Below, piece after piece: positions 11,808-21,209 of a DNA stretch of 64,000 nt. Below the pieces are notes generated by a model. The model ran no database searches, was not told where the DNA came from, and saw nothing but the letters and a program-made list of their open reading frames with translations. Numbering within the stretch: the first letter of the stretch is position 1; each line of letters opens with the position of its first letter. Origin of the DNA: an uncultured Victivallales bacterium (GTDB taxonomy: Bacteria > Verrucomicrobiota > Kiritimatiellia > UBA8416); NCBI GenBank assembly GCA_964497125.1, contig CAZCDU010000005.1:35139-99138 (forward strand), given 5' to 3'. The position numbers and the translations under genes are program-made.

Positions 11808-11836
11808 TTGCGTTTCACGGGGCTTTTCTCTATATT
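11808..11836 (+). promoter_or_regulatory. Sigma-70-like promoter TTGCGT-N17-TATATT upstream of secreted paralog A
   Basis: -35 11808-11813, -10 11831-11836 embedded in palindrome ctctatattatagag; ATG 11846 only ~10 nt downstream (near-leaderless). Confidence 0.4.
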
Positions 11837-11845
11837 ATAGAGGTG

Positions 11846-12574
11846 ATGAGACGTTGGGTTCATATAGCTGTGGTTTCGCTGTTGTTCGGCGTAAACGCGG
11901 AGTTGGCGCCAGGGGCTGATTTCTCGCGCTACTCGCTGATTCTGGACCGCCGGCCGTTTGCGGCGGCGACGTTGTCGGATGATGCGGCGGACAACATTGT
12001 GACCTTGGTGGCGCCGCCGGCCTTTGTCAAAGACCTACGGATGTGCGCGATTACCGAAAGCCCGGCCGGCATCCGCGTTGGCTTCGTGAACATCCAATCG
12101 AAACCACCGCAACCTTATTACCTTTATGTTGGGGACTCGGAAGACGGGATTGAGCTTGTCGAGGCCGACTACGATAAGGAAGGCGCCCTGCTTCGAAAGG
12201 GCACGGAGCAGTACTGGCTCTATATGGGGGCAGGCAGCGTTGCCAGCGGCAGTGCTCCTGCGGCTCCTTCATCTGTGACCGTCAGGACCTCTGTCTCTAA
12301 GGGCGGGAGAGGCGTACCGGCTGCCGCCTCGAAATCCGATGCCAAAGGTCCCGGTTCGGTTTCGTATGCGGAACGCCGCCGCCGTCGGCTTGAGCAGATG
12401 CGAGAGCGCGCGGCGGCGACCAGAAAGGTTACGGAAGCTGAGGCCGAGGAGAAACTGCGTAACTACCAGATGGATCTGATTCGCAAAGGCCTCACGCCTC
12501 TGCCAATGCAACTGACTCCGGAAATGGACGCCCAGCTTGTTGCAGAGGGCGTGCTTCCCGCCATGGAAGAGTGA
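11846..12574 (+). CDS. Secreted hypothetical protein, tandem paralog A
   Basis: Signal peptide; shares blocks with 12725..13438 (FSRY..IL.RRPF, LxMCAIT, VRVGF, Y[YF]L[YF]VG.xEDGI.[LV]VEADYD, C-terminal DAQLV.EGVL). Confidence 0.55.
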   Translation: MRRWVHIAVVSLLFGVNAELAPGADFSRYSLILDRRPFAAATLSDDAADNIVTLVAPPAFVKDLRMCAITESPAGIRVGFVNIQSKPPQPYYLYVGDSEDGIELVEADYDKEGALLRKGTEQYWLYMGAGSVASGSAPAAPSSVTVRTSVSKGGRGVPAAASKSDAKGPGSVSYAERRRRRLEQMRERAAATRKVTEAEAEEKLRNYQMDLIRKGLTPLPMQLTPEMDAQLVAEGVLPAMEE

Positions 12575-12580
12575 AGAGAG

Positions 12581-12620
12581 AAAGCTGAAATTGGGAAAGC
12601 TGAAAGCTGAGATGGGGATG
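12581..12620. repeat. Purine-rich intergenic repeat aaagctgaaattgggaaagctgaaagctgagatgggg (family member)
   Basis: Near-identical copy at 49891-49947. Confidence 0.6.
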
Positions 12621-12633
12621 GGATTCGTTATAG

Positions 12634-12672
12634 GCGTTGCACGTTGCAGTCGTTGCACGTTGCAGTCGTTGA
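12634..12672. repeat. Tandem ~16-bp repeats GTTGCAGTCGTTRCAC (2.5 units)
   Basis: gcgttgcacgttgcagtcgttgcacgttgcagtcgttgaac; same unit in tandem at 33429-33508. Confidence 0.6.
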
Positions 12673-12724
12673 ACGGGGGATCAAGAACCGGAGCTGGAGG
12701 AGCGCGTTAGGTGAAGGTGGGTAG

Positions 12725-13438
12725 ATGAGCATGAGAAAGCAGCTACTGTATATAGTATGTGTTTTGGCCGCTCTTCAGATAACTACCTCATATGGGGCTG
12801 TGGTGCAGTCCTTCTCTCGCTACGAAGTGATTCTCAGTCGTCGGCCGTTCGGGGAGGCGCCGTCTGAGGCGGAGTTGGCCGCAGCCAAGCCTGTCGTATC
12901 GACTGGACCATCCTTTATTGACTCTCTCCAGATGTGCGCCATTACTGCCGGCGGCGGGGCGGTTCGGGTTGGGTTCCTGGATACGAAGAGTAATCCCCCG
13001 AAGACGTACTTCCTCTTTGTTGGCGAAATGGAAGATGGCATCACTGTGGTCGAAGCGGACTACGATGCCGAGACCGCGCTTCTGAGCAAGGATGGTGATG
13101 AGCGGCTCCTGTCGATGTCGCCTGGCGGCACCGGTTCCTCTTTAACAGCACAAGCCGCGGTCGCTTCTCAAGAGCGCTCCCAGGCATTCAAGAGAATGCG
13201 CCGAGCGAGGGAACTGGCGAAACGTTCGCCAGAGGAGATTGCGCTCGCGCGGCAACTTGCAATCGAACGCAAAGCGCCTCTCTTGAAAGGAGAGGACTAT
13301 GACAAGCACATCCGCGCCTACAATATGAACCTTATCAGAGCTGGGGGAGACATGGGAGTACCCCTGCCCATTACGCTTACGGAGGAAGAGGACGCGCAGC
13401 TTGTTTCCGAAGGCGTATTGGGGACACCGGGAGAGTGA
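12725..13438 (+). CDS. Secreted hypothetical protein, tandem paralog B
   Basis: Signal peptide MSMRKQLLYIVCVLAALQ; paralogous to 11846..12574. Confidence 0.55.
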   Translation: MSMRKQLLYIVCVLAALQITTSYGAVVQSFSRYEVILSRRPFGEAPSEAELAAAKPVVSTGPSFIDSLQMCAITAGGGAVRVGFLDTKSNPPKTYFLFVGEMEDGITVVEADYDAETALLSKDGDERLLSMSPGGTGSSLTAQAAVASQERSQAFKRMRRARELAKRSPEEIALARQLAIERKAPLLKGEDYDKHIRAYNMNLIRAGGDMGVPLPITLTEEEDAQLVSEGVLGTPGE

Positions 13439-13469
13439 AAAAAAAAACGGAAAAACGGCTGAGAATCAC

Positions 13470-13499
13470 TTGACGGCGAGAAAGAAAATGGGTATAAAT
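13470..13499 (+). promoter_or_regulatory. Sigma-70-like promoter TTGACG-N17-TATAAAT
   Basis: cttgacggcgagaaagaaaatgggtataaatt; follows poly-A tract after paralog B; ~140-nt leader to ATG 13647. Confidence 0.45.
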
Positions 13500-13646
13500 T
13501 AAGTAGACCTAGGGGAAACCCTTAGTGGTTCCAGGGCTAAGGCAAGCTCTGAATTACGGGTTGACGTATCGGAAGCAGTTATAGTAGTATTCAAACAAGT
13601 AACGGGTTGGCTCGACAGGGAGAGCCGCAACAAGGAGGCAGGAGCA

Positions 13647-14435
13647 ATGAAGAAATTGTCACTAAGTCTGGTCGCTTTGATCGCCATGGCCATCGCAGCC
13701 CAAGCGGTAAACAGCGTAAACATCGTGGGAGTCAACACGCTTCAACTTGAGTCCGGGAAGCGCTACATTGCATCCGCGCCCCTGTATGATCCCAACGGTG
13801 ATGGCACCAATACTCTCCTTAGTGTATTTGGTACGGATCAACTCGTACAGGCTGTGAACTATATCAATGCGGATCGAATCATCCTCTTCGATACCGTAGC
13901 TGGTGCCTATCAGGCCTATGCGCAGTATACAGACGGGACGTTCTACGGCTGCAATAACCTTGCAGAGTGGAATGCAGGTTCTGTTCTTGGTAATGATGTG
14001 GTCTTGGAGCCAGGCACTTCGTTTTGGATTGTTCATCCCGCAGGAGAAGCAACGAGCGAAGTTACCCTTAGTGGTGAAGTGCTCGGTGGATCCGCACACA
14101 CTCAGGATGTGGCCCTTGTAACGGGATATCAGCTGGCAGCAAACCCCTATGCGTCAGAGATCGCCATTCAGGATATTGCCAAGATTGCGGATGGGGCGAC
14201 TGCCGATATCAACTACATCAATGCCGACCGTATCGTGACTTGGGATCCAGACGCTCAGGCCTATCAGGCATATGGGCTCTACACGGATGATACTTGGTAT
14301 AAGTGCAATGATCTGGCTGAGTGGAATGCTGGTGGTGATGTTACTGCGACCGTTCCTGTGGCCGGTGGATTCTGGTATATCTCAAAAACGGACTTTACAT
14401 TGACAGACGCCTGTCCGTATAGTGCCGCATACTAA
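13647..14435 (+). CDS. Secreted hypothetical protein with internal tandem domain duplication
   Basis: Signal peptide MKKLSLSLVALIAMAIAAQA; two ~100-aa repeats (NYINADRIILFD..YQAYAQYTDGTFYGCNNLAEWNAG / NYINADRIVTWD..YQAYGLYTDDTWYKCNDLAEWNAGG). Confidence 0.55.
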   Translation: MKKLSLSLVALIAMAIAAQAVNSVNIVGVNTLQLESGKRYIASAPLYDPNGDGTNTLLSVFGTDQLVQAVNYINADRIILFDTVAGAYQAYAQYTDGTFYGCNNLAEWNAGSVLGNDVVLEPGTSFWIVHPAGEATSEVTLSGEVLGGSAHTQDVALVTGYQLAANPYASEIAIQDIAKIADGATADINYINADRIVTWDPDAQAYQAYGLYTDDTWYKCNDLAEWNAGGDVTATVPVAGGFWYISKTDFTLTDACPYSAAY

Positions 14436-14476
14436 AGAACGTTTGTGTGGTTCACTGAATTGATTGGAGCTAGATA

Positions 14477-15052
14477 ATGACGAAGTGGGTTGGACTAGGG
14501 ATCGTGATGATCGCGCTTGCCGCGAGTACTTCTTTCGGAGGTACAATTGCTTGGGCATACGCAAGTGACTTGGGTGGAAGCTACACGGCAGGCTGGCTAG
14601 TGGAAATCATTGAGGACGTCAACCAAGACGGGATTTCCATTGGGGGTGGCCTTGGTAGCGGTATGATAATGTACAGGAATCCAGGAGATTTGTCGCGAGC
14701 TCACCTCGATGGTGATGACACTTGGGTGACGGCTAATATCACGACGACCCTGCAGAGCGGGAAGACGGGAACAGGATGGGGAACTACCTTCAATGCTCCT
14801 GGATCGTCGCTAGCTACATCTGACAATATTTACACCGTCATCTACAATGGGGCGACGTTTGAGAGCGCAACGCAGTACCGCGTCGTTGATGCCTCACCTT
14901 TCGCTCTACCCTCAACGGATATTGATGCGGACTATGCACCTGGGTCAGTGAATGGTGCATGGGCTCCCATCGTAGCAGTGCCGGAGCCTGGGAGTATGGT
15001 TCTTTTCGCCTTAGGCATCGTGACACTGGCCGTACGTCGCAAGCGCCGCTAG
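14477..15052 (+). CDS. PEP-CTERM sorting-domain protein (exosortase substrate)
   Basis: C-terminus VPEPGSMVLFALGIVTLAVRRKRR = PEP motif + TM helix + basic tail. Confidence 0.7.
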   Translation: MTKWVGLGIVMIALAASTSFGGTIAWAYASDLGGSYTAGWLVEIIEDVNQDGISIGGGLGSGMIMYRNPGDLSRAHLDGDDTWVTANITTTLQSGKTGTGWGTTFNAPGSSLATSDNIYTVIYNGATFESATQYRVVDASPFALPSTDIDADYAPGSVNGAWAPIVAVPEPGSMVLFALGIVTLAVRRKRR

Positions 15053-15077
15053 CTCTGGACGAATCAGATTCGTAGAT

Positions 15078-15110
15078 GGGGGCCTCTCGCGAGGCCCCCA
15101 TCTTTTTTTT
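15078..15110 (+). terminator. Rho-independent terminator
   Basis: gggggcctc-tcgc-gaggccccc stem followed by tcttttttttg. Confidence 0.8.
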
Positions 15111-15138
15111 GCCGTCTACGTATCATGGGAATCCGCCA

Positions 15139-15750
15139 ATGACTGTTTTCTCAAGACTCCTTCTTTTGATTTGCATGTGCATCATAGGTAGCACTTGCGA
15201 CGCTGAGCAGCCGCTGTCAAAGAATCTTCTTTTTCTTGCTTCACCGGAAGTGTCGTCTGAACTTGCCAACGCACGTTTCAGGTTCCTGGAAATGAACGTG
15301 AGAGGGACGCTCCGCACAGATAGGACCCTTTTGCGCACCGCGGAGCTGACTCCGAAAGAGCAGCTCAAGGCATTTTCTTGTATGGTGACTGACGGAGATG
15401 CCCTAGTCATTGCTCTTGTCAACTCACCATCTGGAGGAGGCCCCGTCGTTGCCTACTCGGTAGGGCTTGGTGCCTCCGTGGTCAACATTTCGCCGATCCT
15501 AGCGATGAAAGAGCTTACGCCGACGGGGCAGAGCGCGAGAATCGATAGGGCCCTGATGTTTGCAATTGGGATGCTACTGCAAGTTGATTCGTGCATGAAT
15601 CCATTCTGCGCCTTGAGCGAGGTCGATCATTTCCGTAAGGATCAATTGCCTGGGCGGAATTACTGCCCCGCCTGCACCGACAAGGTCTCTGACCAGCTCA
15701 AGAACCATGGGGTATGTGAGGGGACGCCGCTGCCGAAATCCGGCAAGTAG
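15139..15750 (+). CDS. Cys-rich secreted/lipoprotein-like hypothetical protein (CX4C...X18...CXXC motif)
   Basis: Start MTVFSRLLLLICMCIIGSTC; C-terminal CMNPFC...CPAC zinc-ribbon-like spacing; upstream part of ORF 15076 lies in terminator. Confidence 0.4.
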   Translation: MTVFSRLLLLICMCIIGSTCDAEQPLSKNLLFLASPEVSSELANARFRFLEMNVRGTLRTDRTLLRTAELTPKEQLKAFSCMVTDGDALVIALVNSPSGGGPVVAYSVGLGASVVNISPILAMKELTPTGQSARIDRALMFAIGMLLQVDSCMNPFCALSEVDHFRKDQLPGRNYCPACTDKVSDQLKNHGVCEGTPLPKSGK

Positions 15751-15768: not shown

Positions 15769-17958
15769 CTATTTGCCTCGGTGGCCCTCGCTCTTGGCGG
15801 GGATCTTGCCCTTTACGAGCAGTGCTGTCTTCATCAACGTGATGACATTGCTGAAGTCATCCGTCCAGAGAATGTCCTTGTCCTCTGCGCCAAGTGGTCT
15901 GATGATTGCGCCTTCTGGTGCGCTTACCGCATAGGCTGTGTCACGTGAGAGGAGTACCCATAGGCAGTCGGCCATGATTCGCATGTCGCCTGTTCCTTCA
16001 ACAACGTATCCGTGCAACCCATAGTGTTTGGCAATGCCTGCGAGTACGGGAACCAGATCCAGGTACATATTGGTGATTTGGATGGCCAACACACCGTTCT
16101 CGGGGTTGAGGTGGGCTAGATAGGTCGCAAACGCCTCGACGGTCAGCAGATGAACGGGGATGGCATCGCCATTGAAGGCATCCATGTTGAGAATGTCAAA
16201 ATTGTGGGATCCGTTTTCTTCCAACTCCTGCTCCATTGAAAGCCTTGCATCCCCGATGACTAGCTCTACATCTGCAGGGCAAGCCGACAGATACCTGAAG
16301 TGCGCTGTGTTTGTGGCAATGTCCACAACATCAGGGCTGAGCTCATAGAACCGAAACCGGTCACCATCGCGACCGTAGGCGGCGACCGTTCCTATGCCAA
16401 GTCCGAGTACTCCCACGTGCATGTTTGGAGACACGCCTGTCTCGGCGCTCTGTCGCTTTGGGTGGTTGGCGAAGGCGATCCCGATGCCGCTTCTGGGACC
16501 AAAGTAGGCATTGGGAATGTTTGCGAATGGTCCTCGGTCGAACTGCAGCCCGTGGCAGATCTTGCCATGCATGAGCGAATAGACATGGACCCCCCTTGCT
16601 TGTTCCTCTTCAACAACCTTGAGCGCACCGTAGAAGCTGCGAGAACGGGCGACGGTTGTCAATGTTGGTCCATCCTCGGGCATTTTGGAGAGGGCAAACA
16701 GAATAGCAGCAGTTGCAACCAGCATTGGGACTCGCCATGAATGCATCCAAGCACGATCAAAAAGGAAGGTAGTCGCCAGAACGCAGGAGAACATGAGTCC
16801 GATCCGGAGTTCCCAGTAGTCTGAAAAGAGAATAGGTGCGGCGATACCAACGAAAAGGCCTCCAATTGCCCCCCCTAAGGCGATCATCAGGTAGAAGAAC
16901 GTCAGCAAGTCTGGCGAAGGTCTCTGCTTGTGGAGCATTCCCAGGCAGAGCATGCACGAGCAGAACAGGCAAATCAGGTATGTGGCCAACTGGGGTATCA
17001 TCCCAAGCTTGAGTTCGTGTTGCATCACGTAGAGCAAGACACCCGTCACTGGCAGCATAATCGTGGCCGCGATCACGGGTATGTTCGCTGCATGACTGCT
17101 GAAACAGATAATGAAGGCGATTAAGTAGAGAGAGAGGGGTAGTAGCCAGAGCAGTGGGACGGGAGCCACATTGGCGCAGATCTGGTTCGTCATGGAGATC
17201 AGCATCAATGTGGCACATGCCGAAAGGCCGAGCCAAACCAACCCCTTCCTCCAAACCCGGCTGATAGGGAATTTGGCCTCAGTTCTGGTTGCAATGGCAG
17301 ATCGCATTTTGAGGGCGTGCAGCGAACACGCTGTACAGACTATAGCGAAAGCTACATATCCCAGACCCCACATTGAAGCTTGCTGTCTGATCCCAGACAG
17401 AGGCTCCAGCAATAGCGGATACACCAGAAGGGCGAAGAGTGACCCCACATTTGAGATCGCATAGAAGAAATAGAGGGGCTTCTTCTGGCTACTGTCTTTG
17501 CCATAGAACCATGATTGAACGAGGGGGCTAGTGCTGGAAAGCAGTAAGTAGGGCAGACCAACAGACATAGCAAGGATGATGACGACCGCCAGTGTTGGGT
17601 CATGCTCCAGAAGAGCCATTGCCCATGCGCGTGGTGGTGTGACCGGCGTGCCCCAGATTGCGTGCTGCCACCCGAGTGAGGCAAGCGAAAGCACGATTAG
17701 AGTTATATGGCAGACAACCTGCGTCATGATCCTGGTCTGCGAAATCAGGTAGGCATAGAGATACCCGAAAAACAGTAGCGCTTGAAAGAAGAGTAGGCAT
17801 GCAGTCCACACGGATGCAGCACCGCCAAACCAGGGAAGAATATGTTTGGCTATGAGTGGTTGTACCAGAAACAGCTCGAAGGCACTCAGAAATGCCAGCA
17901 GCAAGTAAACTGTAGTAACTGCCGTGCTTTTTGTTGAATTGCTGTTCGCTATACTCAT
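15769..17958 (-). CDS. Polytopic membrane protein fused to C-terminal spermidine/spermine synthase-like (aminopropyltransferase fold) domain
   Basis: ~12+ TM helices then VLGLGIGTVAAYG...FRFYELSPDVVDIA...VIGDARL...NFDILNMDAF; start ambiguous (ATG 17958 or upstream 18030/18123). Confidence 0.6.
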   Translation of the reverse strand: MSIANSNSTKSTAVTTVYLLLAFLSAFELFLVQPLIAKHILPWFGGAASVWTACLLFFQALLFFGYLYAYLISQTRIMTQVVCHITLIVLSLASLGWQHAIWGTPVTPPRAWAMALLEHDPTLAVVIILAMSVGLPYLLLSSTSPLVQSWFYGKDSSQKKPLYFFYAISNVGSLFALLVYPLLLEPLSGIRQQASMWGLGYVAFAIVCTACSLHALKMRSAIATRTEAKFPISRVWRKGLVWLGLSACATLMLISMTNQICANVAPVPLLWLLPLSLYLIAFIICFSSHAANIPVIAATIMLPVTGVLLYVMQHELKLGMIPQLATYLICLFCSCMLCLGMLHKQRPSPDLLTFFYLMIALGGAIGGLFVGIAAPILFSDYWELRIGLMFSCVLATTFLFDRAWMHSWRVPMLVATAAILFALSKMPEDGPTLTTVARSRSFYGALKVVEEEQARGVHVYSLMHGKICHGLQFDRGPFANIPNAYFGPRSGIGIAFANHPKRQSAETGVSPNMHVGVLGLGIGTVAAYGRDGDRFRFYELSPDVVDIATNTAHFRYLSACPADVELVIGDARLSMEQELEENGSHNFDILNMDAFNGDAIPVHLLTVEAFATYLAHLNPENGVLAIQITNMYLDLVPVLAGIAKHYGLHGYVVEGTGDMRIMADCLWVLLSRDTAYAVSAPEGAIIRPLGAEDKDILWTDDFSNVITLMKTALLVKGKIPAKSEGHRGK

Positions 17959-18065
17959 GATCAGAGAAGTGACGATGAAGGATTTGCGTGTTGCTGTCAA
18001 ATCTGATCGTGTACGTTCGAACTTCCGCATTGTCACACTCCCCAGAGCCTGTGTACGATCAGGGC

Positions 18066-21000
18066 ATGGAAACGAGTAAACTATTTGATAAGCTGGTTGG
18101 CCTCGCGCTTGTTGCCGTGGCATTGGTTGTCTATCTGACTACGCTTAGCTCCGGGGTCTGTCCCGGGCCGTCTGCGTCACTCTTGGCGGGGCATGTCGGG
18201 TTGATTCCCCGGTTCTCTCCTGCGTCACCCGTGTGGACGGGGCTTGTGGCCGTTGTCCGTGCTGTTTCGGGGGCGAATTTCGTGTTTGCGCTGAACCTGA
18301 TGAGCGCGGTGTTCGCCGCTAGTGCCGTTGGCCTGCTCTTTGTTCTCGTCAGGGAAGGTGTGGCGATCTTCGTGGATGAGTTGGGGGGCACTGCAACGCG
18401 TCGGCGCGCGGCTTCGCTCCTGGCGGGCAGTGCCGCGGCACTCAGCCTCACGTTCTGTATACCGTTCTGGATTGTGGCGAACCGGGCGCATACCGCGGCG
18501 CTGGATGTGTTTCTGCTTCTCATGGCGGCACGGTTGCTTCTGGCGTACATGGACTATGGCAAGCTTTGGATTGCTCTCCTGTTCAGTTTCTGTTTTGGCG
18601 TTGGTGTGGTGGAGTTCGCAACGTTCATCGTTGTGGCTCCGGTGTTCGGCGCCTGGCTGGTTTACGTCATGTGGAAGCGCAACGTTCTCAGGCTTCCGGC
18701 TGTTCTGGCGCTTGTTGGCTGCACCGTCGTTGGATTGCTCGTGTACCTGCTCGGTGCGTGGGGATTCTACAAGACGCCAGGGTACGAGTTGAGGGGCTAC
18801 GCAGGATTCTTTGACATTATCTGGCACATGTGGCGCGAGCAGTATGCGCTTGTCTCCAGGAGTCTTCCGAAAGAGGGATGGCTTATCATTCTGTTTGTTA
18901 CCGTAGTGCCATGGTTTGCGATGTTCAGCGTTGCCAAACGCGGCCTTAACGATGAGCGGGATTGGAGTCTGTACCTGCTACATGTGATCATGACAGGGTT
19001 GGTGGTCGCGGTTCTGTTGAATTCGCCGATAGCACCGTTTGCCATGCTCGGTATGGGTCGCCTTCTCGTGACTCCCTACGTTCTGGTCGCCATGGTGACG
19101 GGGTATCTTGTCGCCTACTGGTTCCTCCTGCCTTCCGGGTGGGGACGTGATCCTGAAGCCGCATTGACACGATTCTATCGCAGTTTCTTTGGTTGGGTTC
19201 TCATTGCCCCGTTGGTAGGCGTTCTTATCTGGACTCCTTTTCGCAATGCGACGCAGACTGGCACACAGCAGACTCATTTCGTGAGCGCGTTTTCAGATGA
19301 AGTCATTGATAGCCTCGAGGGGCGAGAATGGTTGTTGTCAGATGGCGTGTTGGACAACCACTTACTCCTGGCGGCCAAACGCGAGGGGGTGCCCCTGAAG
19401 GTCATCAATGTGGGGGCGGGGAGTAGTTCGCTCTATCTCGACTATCTCGCTTCCCAGTTCGAAAATACGCGCATGCAGAACCTCGTCAAAGTCGGTATTC
19501 CGGCTTTGATGGCCGAATGGATGCAGGAAGGATCCGGCGTTCAGGACGAGGTGGCGAGTCTCGCTATGCCGGATATCTGGGAGCGGTACGGGTTCGCGGC
19601 GGTTCCAAACAAGCTTGTTTTCCTCGGAGCGACGGACAAGTCGGCACTGGATGCAGACGAAATGGTCACGAAGCATCGTGAATTCTGGAGCCGTTTTGGC
19701 CCCGTTCTTGAAGAAGGCGAGTCTGTCGTGGGAGAGAATCCCTGGCATGCTTGGGGGAGACGACATGCTGGGCTCGTGGCGAACAACTTGGGGGTCCTCC
19801 TCGAGGACCTTGGCCGTCCAGAGGATGCGTATGCTGTTTACGAGTCGGCGCGCGGGATCGATCCGGACAATGTGAGCGCCCTGCTGAACATGTCAACGAT
19901 GGTCGAGGCGGGGCGTGCCTCGAACCCCTCTGGCTCCGTGAAGGCGGATATGGACGCGCTCAAGGCCAATATGGAGCAGAAGTACGATATCTGGTCACTG
20001 GCACGCTACTATGGCTATGTACGGGCGCCCGATGCATTTGCACAGTTGGGTTGGACGTGGGCCTATTCCGGCCAGGCAGGAATGGCTGTCTCTGAGTTGG
20101 GAAAAGCGGCAGACATGCTTCCCAATGACAAGAAGGGCGCCGTTCAGGAGCTCATGGCGGATATCTTCCTTAGAGAGAACCAGCCCACAGAGAGTGAAGC
20201 GATCTACCGCGAGATTCTCGCGAGGGACAAGGGGAATCAGGCGGCTCTGATGGGGTTAGTGCACATACGGCTTGGACAGAAGAAGTTCAAGGATGCTGAG
20301 GGGTTCCTGTCGCTCGCGGCGGACAGCGGTGTCCCTTCCGAGCAGATCGAGTTGCAGCGCGCGGGAATCGCCTTCGCAGCCGGTGAGCAGGAGCGCGCGA
20401 AGGAAATTCTGGACGAGCTACTTCAATCCAATCGCAAGCTCTTGAGGGGATGGGTCCTTCTTGCGGATATTGCATTCGCAGAACAGAATGACCGCACTTT
20501 GGACAAGTGCCTGAGGAGGCTCGGAGAATTGGAGGGAGACCGCGGCTATTTTGGATCGGTGATTCGAGGACGACGCGCCCTGCTTGAGAAGGATATTGCC
20601 TCAGGGGCTGATGCTTTCGAAACGGCTCTGTCTCAGAACCCCACGAATGTGGAACTAGTCGAGGTACTGCTTCGCCTGGAGCTGATGCTTGGGCGGCAGG
20701 AGAAGCTGCGGTCTCGTGTTAAGTCGCTTCTCCAGCAGAACCCAAAGCATGGAATGGCCCTCTATGTCCGCGGTAGCCTACAGATTGCAGATGGTGAGCT
20801 GGCACTGGCCGAAGACTCACTGCGGGGCAGTCTCCGTGCATCACGGTCGCCGATGACGTTGAACGATCTCGCCTGGGTGGTTCAGGCCCGTGGTGGCTAT
20901 GAGGAGGCGGAGAAGCTGATCGATGAGGCGCTTGGGTTGGCCGAGAAGCAGCATGCCCTGTGGGACACCAAGGGCACAATCCTGTTGCGGATGGAACGTT

Positions 21001-21209
21001 ACGAGGAAGCGGTTGAGGCGTTCGGCAGGTCGCTAGCCATTTTCGACAAGATACCGTCTGTTCACCTGCACATGGGTGAGGCCCAATTGGCTCTGGGTCG
21101 CAAGGAGGCCGTCAGGCAAGTTGTGGAATTGCTGGAGCCGAATAAGGATGCGCTCAGCACCGAGGATCGGGAACTGCTGGGCAAGCTGTCTGCAGCTTTG
21201 AACGAATAG
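18066..21209 (+). CDS. Large polytopic membrane protein with C-terminal TPR repeats (DUF2723/TMEM260-like putative glycosyltransferase)
   Basis: N-terminal ~11 TM helices, C-terminal ~500 aa of TPR-like helical repeats; start METSKLF. Confidence 0.5.
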   Translation: METSKLFDKLVGLALVAVALVVYLTTLSSGVCPGPSASLLAGHVGLIPRFSPASPVWTGLVAVVRAVSGANFVFALNLMSAVFAASAVGLLFVLVREGVAIFVDELGGTATRRRAASLLAGSAAALSLTFCIPFWIVANRAHTAALDVFLLLMAARLLLAYMDYGKLWIALLFSFCFGVGVVEFATFIVVAPVFGAWLVYVMWKRNVLRLPAVLALVGCTVVGLLVYLLGAWGFYKTPGYELRGYAGFFDIIWHMWREQYALVSRSLPKEGWLIILFVTVVPWFAMFSVAKRGLNDERDWSLYLLHVIMTGLVVAVLLNSPIAPFAMLGMGRLLVTPYVLVAMVTGYLVAYWFLLPSGWGRDPEAALTRFYRSFFGWVLIAPLVGVLIWTPFRNATQTGTQQTHFVSAFSDEVIDSLEGREWLLSDGVLDNHLLLAAKREGVPLKVINVGAGSSSLYLDYLASQFENTRMQNLVKVGIPALMAEWMQEGSGVQDEVASLAMPDIWERYGFAAVPNKLVFLGATDKSALDADEMVTKHREFWSRFGPVLEEGESVVGENPWHAWGRRHAGLVANNLGVLLEDLGRPEDAYAVYESARGIDPDNVSALLNMSTMVEAGRASNPSGSVKADMDALKANMEQKYDIWSLARYYGYVRAPDAFAQLGWTWAYSGQAGMAVSELGKAADMLPNDKKGAVQELMADIFLRENQPTESEAIYREILARDKGNQAALMGLVHIRLGQKKFKDAEGFLSLAADSGVPSEQIELQRAGIAFAAGEQERAKEILDELLQSNRKLLRGWVLLADIAFAEQNDRTLDKCLRRLGELEGDRGYFGSVIRGRRALLEKDIASGADAFETALSQNPTNVELVEVLLRLELMLGRQEKLRSRVKSLLQQNPKHGMALYVRGSLQIADGELALAEDSLRGSLRASRSPMTLNDLAWVVQARGGYEEAEKLIDEALGLAEKQHALWDTKGTILLRMERYEEAVEAFGRSLAIFDKIPSVHLHMGEAQLALGRKEAVRQVVELLEPNKDALSTEDRELLGKLSAALNE

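Follow-up and report, generated by a model that had tools for sequence, protein, structure and literature searches.

A tandem paralog family with a predicted GspC/PilP-type HR domain is linked to a PEP-CTERM gene pair in PVC bacteria

Type II secretion systems and type IVa pili engage their outer-membrane secretin through the HR domain of GspC or PilP, respectively, which binds the secretin's N0 domain; DotF and GspB also contain HR-type domains, with which they attach to complexes of the outer membrane. Enzymes that degrade polysaccharides are secreted in large numbers by PVC bacteria (Kiritimatiellia, Lentisphaerota, Verrucomicrobiota), in whose secretion machines GspC and PilP often go unannotated. 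For PEP-CTERM proteins, the route across the outer membrane was left open in the first description of the system in 2006 (PMC1569441). Other proteins with C-terminal tags, the MYXO-CTERM and GlyGly-CTERM proteins, cross the outer membrane via the T2SS (PMC11980579). In the 64-kb stretch of DNA analysed here (the window), the five co-directional genes of the initial annotation, A to E, were all found on the + strand. Their ORFs agreed with public gene calls on identical contigs and are genuine, and the view that they encode exported proteins was supported. The true starts of A, B and E were corrected to 11846, 12731 and 15139, respectively. The gene block is conserved in a relative: the order A-B-C-D-E-F-G, which includes the two neighbours F and G, recurred in locus L007 at about 67% identity.

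Paralog A (242 aa; 11846..12574, +) has a signal-peptide-like N-terminus, a FSRYSLILDRRPF motif, an HR-type beta domain, a disordered linker and a conserved helical C-terminal module. Paralog B (235 aa; 12731..13438, +), the protein whose structure was modelled, has the same architecture, and the A-B spacer holds a 16-nt tandem repeat (family D4; 12626..12657, +). Both had been described as tandem paralogs with common blocks; they were 36% identical over the full length (E 8e-42), and the blocks FSRYxxILxRRPF, MCAIT, VRVGF, EDGIxVVEADYD and DAQLVxEGVL were kept across the family. A word-indexed search returned 59 family proteins, all of them unnamed, and an exhaustive search with an E cut-off of 1e-3 returned 1,282 representatives (352 of them within 1e-30), which puts the family at no fewer than 1,282 clusters at 50% identity. 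The 38 A/B genome loci came from PVC-group or unclassified MAGs and single-cell genomes, with the sole exception of L042, a short and weak match in a bin labelled Balneolia. In the tree, A-type and B-type proteins formed two orthologous clades, and the window's A fell in the A-type clade. A and B are ancient paralogs, and their family, which has no name, spans the PVC group. In the proposed order of parts, a short Sec-type N-terminal hydrophobic segment would be followed by the peptide F-x-R/K-Y-x-x-I-x-x-R-x-P-F, which is invariant in the family, then by the HR beta domain, a variable, disordered linker and the conserved C-terminal module (YNMxLIR...PLPIxLTxEEDAQLVxEGVL; helices at 142-227 in the model of B). 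The N-terminal hydrophobic run usually comprised 10-16 uncharged residues and was followed, some 25 aa into the protein, by small residues, and no conserved N-terminal cysteine (lipobox) was present among 32 family members. Judged from these sequences, the N-terminus looks more like a cleavable signal peptide than like the membrane anchor of GspC or the lipobox of PilP.

The initial annotation stated that the paralogs match no known family. This held at the sequence level: with E values up to 1 admitted, Pfam gave A no family and B a spurious match only, and neither its T2SSC nor its PilP model matched A or B; no NCBIfam model matched, and the family profile found nothing among the PDB sequences, GspC included. 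It did not hold at the level of the fold. The AF2 model of B had a pLDDT above 93 across residues 66-128, and Foldseek placed PilP (3jc8_Pa) and GspC (3oss_C) at the top ranks, each with a probability of 1.00; the target TM-score was 0.72 for 3oss_C versus 0.37 for 3jc8_Pa. The E-values of the HR matches (0.03-0.05) were not significant alone, and the HR fold is small, at about 62 residues. In the model, the core of A/B is a six-stranded beta domain with the HR-domain fold of GspC and PilP, so the kinship with secretion or pilus assembly components that the initial annotation had set against its own reading was found for this domain at the fold level. P0081, a 939-aa fusion ORF present on 3 contigs, contains two HR copies, repeats, an A/B-family C-terminal module and a PpiC rotamase. 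Its repeats jointly passed the Pfam GspD-N0 cut-off (34.6 bits vs 27), an assignment that is a sum of weak repeats, and their best PDB sequence match was the N0 region of GspD, which was not significant (E 0.35).

We give about an even chance to the reading that A and B are periplasmic secretin-docking adaptors and that C and D are the linked surface cargo. By this mechanism A and B, possibly as a heteromer, would connect a partner in the inner membrane or periplasm with a secretin whose gene lies elsewhere in the genome. No secretin, T2SS, GspE/F/G, PilMNOQ, pilus or exosortase gene was found in the 64-kb window, and no secretin, gsp, GspE/F/G, PilMNOQ or exosortase gene was found beside those A/B homologues whose neighbours were examined; these neighbours were housekeeping genes, for example secA, pgi, holA, dinB and thrC. 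An AAA_22 gene next to an A/B family gene was seen only once. Candidate pilMNOPQ-like operons in L012, L019 and L044 were rejected, the genes being dinB, an NYN-domain gene, an ankyrin-FGE gene and thrC. The lack of secretion-machine genes in the examined neighbourhoods, the signal-peptide-like rather than anchor-like N-terminus and the failure to find sequence homology to GspC or PilP would all suit general periplasmic scaffolds or chaperones, whose small beta domain is merely HR-like and unrelated to secretins, within a block of envelope proteins. This is essentially the reading of the initial annotation, and we consider it unlikely.

The secretin-docking reading draws on the position of A/B relative to C and D. 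A D homologue directly followed C in 29/29 loci, and C-D is an obligate pair. Of the 11 informative loci, which belong to different PVC phyla and encode proteins only 26-40% identical (lineages down to 26-30%), 10 had an A/B homologue upstream of C at a distance of at most 1.5 kb, and the A/B-C-D arrangement as a whole recurred in lineages down to about 30% identity. In the literature searched, we found no description of such a pair behind an HR-domain gene. It is also conceivable, although somewhat unlikely in our view, that A/B serve in a secretin machine, either a T2SS or a type IV pilus, and stand next to C-D by inherited gene order, without functional coupling, while C-D(-E-F-G) forms an independent exosortase-dependent surface module. 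C was carried by just 7 of the 39 A/B genome loci and C-D was absent from the other 32, so A/B clearly has a C-D-independent function; at L055, C-D occurred without A/B within 7 kb upstream, at L037 it was about 9.6 kb from A/B and on the opposite strand, and C has a conserved promoter and leader of its own. However, chance gene order seldom persists across such divergence, and the C-linked loci were scattered across the A/B tree. The proposal of a five-gene module was thus borne out as synteny but not as one equivalent set, since A/B mostly occur apart from the obligate C-D pair and a terminator precedes E.

Protein C (262 aa; 13647..14435, +) consists of a signal peptide and two all-beta repeats of about 120 aa with no known fold; the repeats aligned at 55% identity across 60 aa (E 4e-20), which confirmed the internal duplication noted earlier. 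In protein D (191 aa; 14477..15052, +), a signal peptide precedes a body that is specific to the family, and a PEP-CTERM tag (VPEPGS, TM helix, RRKRR) follows; its C-terminal sequence, ...VPEPGSMVLFALGIVTLAVRRKRR, comprises the PEP motif, the helix and the basic cluster. Its description as a PEP-CTERM exosortase substrate was upheld by both Pfam PF07589 (29.1 bits, cut-off 20.7) and TIGR02595 (24.6 bits, cut-off 16). Pfam scans of the window's larger ORFs, and an NCBIfam scan that covered the seven proteins between 11.8 and 21.2 kb, found no exosortase (EpsH/Xrt), the enzyme for which the initial annotation had proposed a check; for its cleavage and anchoring, D would depend on an exosortase gene elsewhere. 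The DNA upstream of C (13470..13646, +) is conserved in L007, L050 and L048; it holds a promoter-like TTGACG-N17-TATAAA and a leader, some 140 nt long, that includes a hairpin and the ribosome-binding site AAGGAGG. The leader matched no Rfam family, and its hairpin is a candidate structure that was compared in only 3 sequences. Before A (11808..11836, +), a reading of the sequence gave TTGCGT-N17-TATATT with a weak -35, which the consensus scan did not report. Here the -10-like box ends only 6-9 nt ahead of the start codon, and the A mRNA may therefore be leaderless; the box abuts a GAGG box (11840-11843) 3 nt downstream, and L007 has a similar TTGATC...TATACT, 8 nt before ATG. Of the strong sigma-70-like promoters first proposed, the hexamers are present and those before C are conserved in relatives, but their frequency was not above that of shuffled sequence (4 found vs 2.8 +/- 2.0). 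The clean terminator, in contrast, was confirmed: an intrinsic terminator (15074..15110, +) with a 13-bp stem, 9 G-C pairs and a T7 tail closes the C-D unit. C and D would together make up a conserved, cargo-like unit that has a conserved promoter and leader to itself and is closed by a strong terminator.

The longer ORF for E (start 15076) reads through this terminator; the start at 15139 lies past it, which places E outside the C-D transcription unit. Protein E (203 aa; 15139..15750, +) had been called a Cys4 lipoprotein. The four cysteines stood: C-X4-C-A-L-X16-C-XX-C is present in the window protein, and 7/7 family members had C-X4-C-A-L-X15/16-C-XX-C (X15 in one, X16 in six) with invariant cysteines. 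The lipoprotein was rejected, because no lipobox cysteine is conserved in E; instead, E is a probable, signal-peptide-bearing relative of the archaemetzincins. The family profile matched PDB archaemetzincins (M54; 3ZVS, 4AXQ, 2X7M, 3LMC) with E values between 1.6e-4 and 0.017, in alignments confined to the last 58-65 residues that took in the active-site helix and the zinc-ribbon region; Pfam M54 matched 2/7 members (best E 1.5e-7) and not the window protein. The spacing is almost the same as that of the archaemetzincin zinc-site consensus, CX4CXMX17CXXC (PMC3427221), and this second (structural) zinc site is kept with Met changed to Leu. [quoted passage not shown] No His occurred in those 16 residues in any of the seven members, and the three zinc-binding His, the catalytic Glu and the Met-turn Met were replaced in all of them. 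By sequence, E is a probable degenerate archaemetzincin that has kept the Cys4 zinc site and lost HEXXHXXGXXH; this exported, archaemetzincin-like pseudo-protease probably acts as a binding protein, not an enzyme. It provides an example of an exported archaemetzincin-derived pseudo-enzyme, as C provides a candidate new beta fold.

Protein F (753 aa; 15769..18030, -) is a polytopic membrane protein fused to a spermidine-synthase-like domain (NCBIfam NF037959, 32.2 bits, below the cut-off of 40), and homologues recurred near C-D in L007, L053, L054, L056, L057 and L058. Protein G (18066..21209, +) has a TMEM260-like (GT-C type) membrane domain and a long TPR region; it passed Pfam PF11028 (28.2 bits, cut-off 24.2), many TPR families matched as well, and homologues recurred in L005, L007, L017, L024 and L037. 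These two recurrent neighbours may modify the cargo. The analysis itself supplies the predicted fold, the size of the family, the history of the paralogs, the synteny and the loss of E's catalytic residues; that A/B bind a secretin, that C and D travel by this route as its cargo, and whatever part E, F and G may play are inferred.

The secretin-docking fold gives a first functional handle on a large family that is unnamed in Pfam and NCBIfam, and the assignment bears on a common annotation gap in PVC secretion machines. If A/B is a secretin adaptor, its conserved position before C and the PEP-CTERM protein D suggests that such substrates could exit through a T2SS-type secretin. The tight A/B-C-D linkage thus offers a concrete hypothesis for the outer-membrane crossing of PEP-CTERM proteins, matching the T2SS dependence of MYXO-CTERM and GlyGly-CTERM proteins. 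In its boldest form, which we regard as distinctly improbable, the A/B family would be an unrecognised GspC/PilP-equivalent secretin adaptor of PVC bacteria, and exosortase substrates or a C-D surface complex would leave the periplasm via a T2SS-type secretin with A/B as the cargo-selective adaptor. If true, such an adaptor would fill in the step across the outer membrane that has been missing from the PEP-CTERM pathway.

Compared with known systems, D resembles exosortase substrates (TIGR02595, PF07589; PepA-like) in its PEP motif, TM helix and basic tail, and it partly matches the flocculation protein PepA, at 35.7 bits where the cut-off is 80. It differs from known PEP-CTERM substrates in that its family is always paired with the C family, usually behind an HR-domain gene and with no exosortase near. 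G resembles the TMEM260/TMTC-type GT-C glycosyltransferases with TPR, and its TPR region is partly PrsT-like, although far below the PrsT cut-off (112 vs 312 bits). A/B differ from DotF and GspB in lacking sequence similarity and a Dot/Icm or ExeAB context. With PilP, the alignment-complex lipoprotein of type IVa pili (PDB 2IVW, 2Y4X, 4AV2, 3JC8), they share the HR-type beta domain, and PilP structures were among the best fold matches. It is very unlikely, in our judgement, that A/B take the place of PilP in a type IV pilus machine and not that of GspC in a T2SS: they resemble PilP more than GspC in that they appear to lack a long membrane anchor and have, by Pfam, no PDZ domain, and a prepilin peptidase gene lies about 6 kb away in L005; however, they have neither a conserved lipobox cysteine nor a Pfam PilP match, were never found in a pilMNOPQ-like operon or, among the neighbours examined, beside pilMNOQ, and have their single best structural match in GspC (T2SS; HR domain, PDB 3OSS chain C). 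From GspC they differ in the absence of a Pfam T2SSC match, in the apparent absence of the long N-terminal anchor and PDZ domain, and in the absence of a gsp-operon context; instead, they carry the FxRYxxIxxRxPF N-terminal and YNMxLIR...EEDAQLVxEGVL C-terminal modules and occur as an ancient tandem pair.

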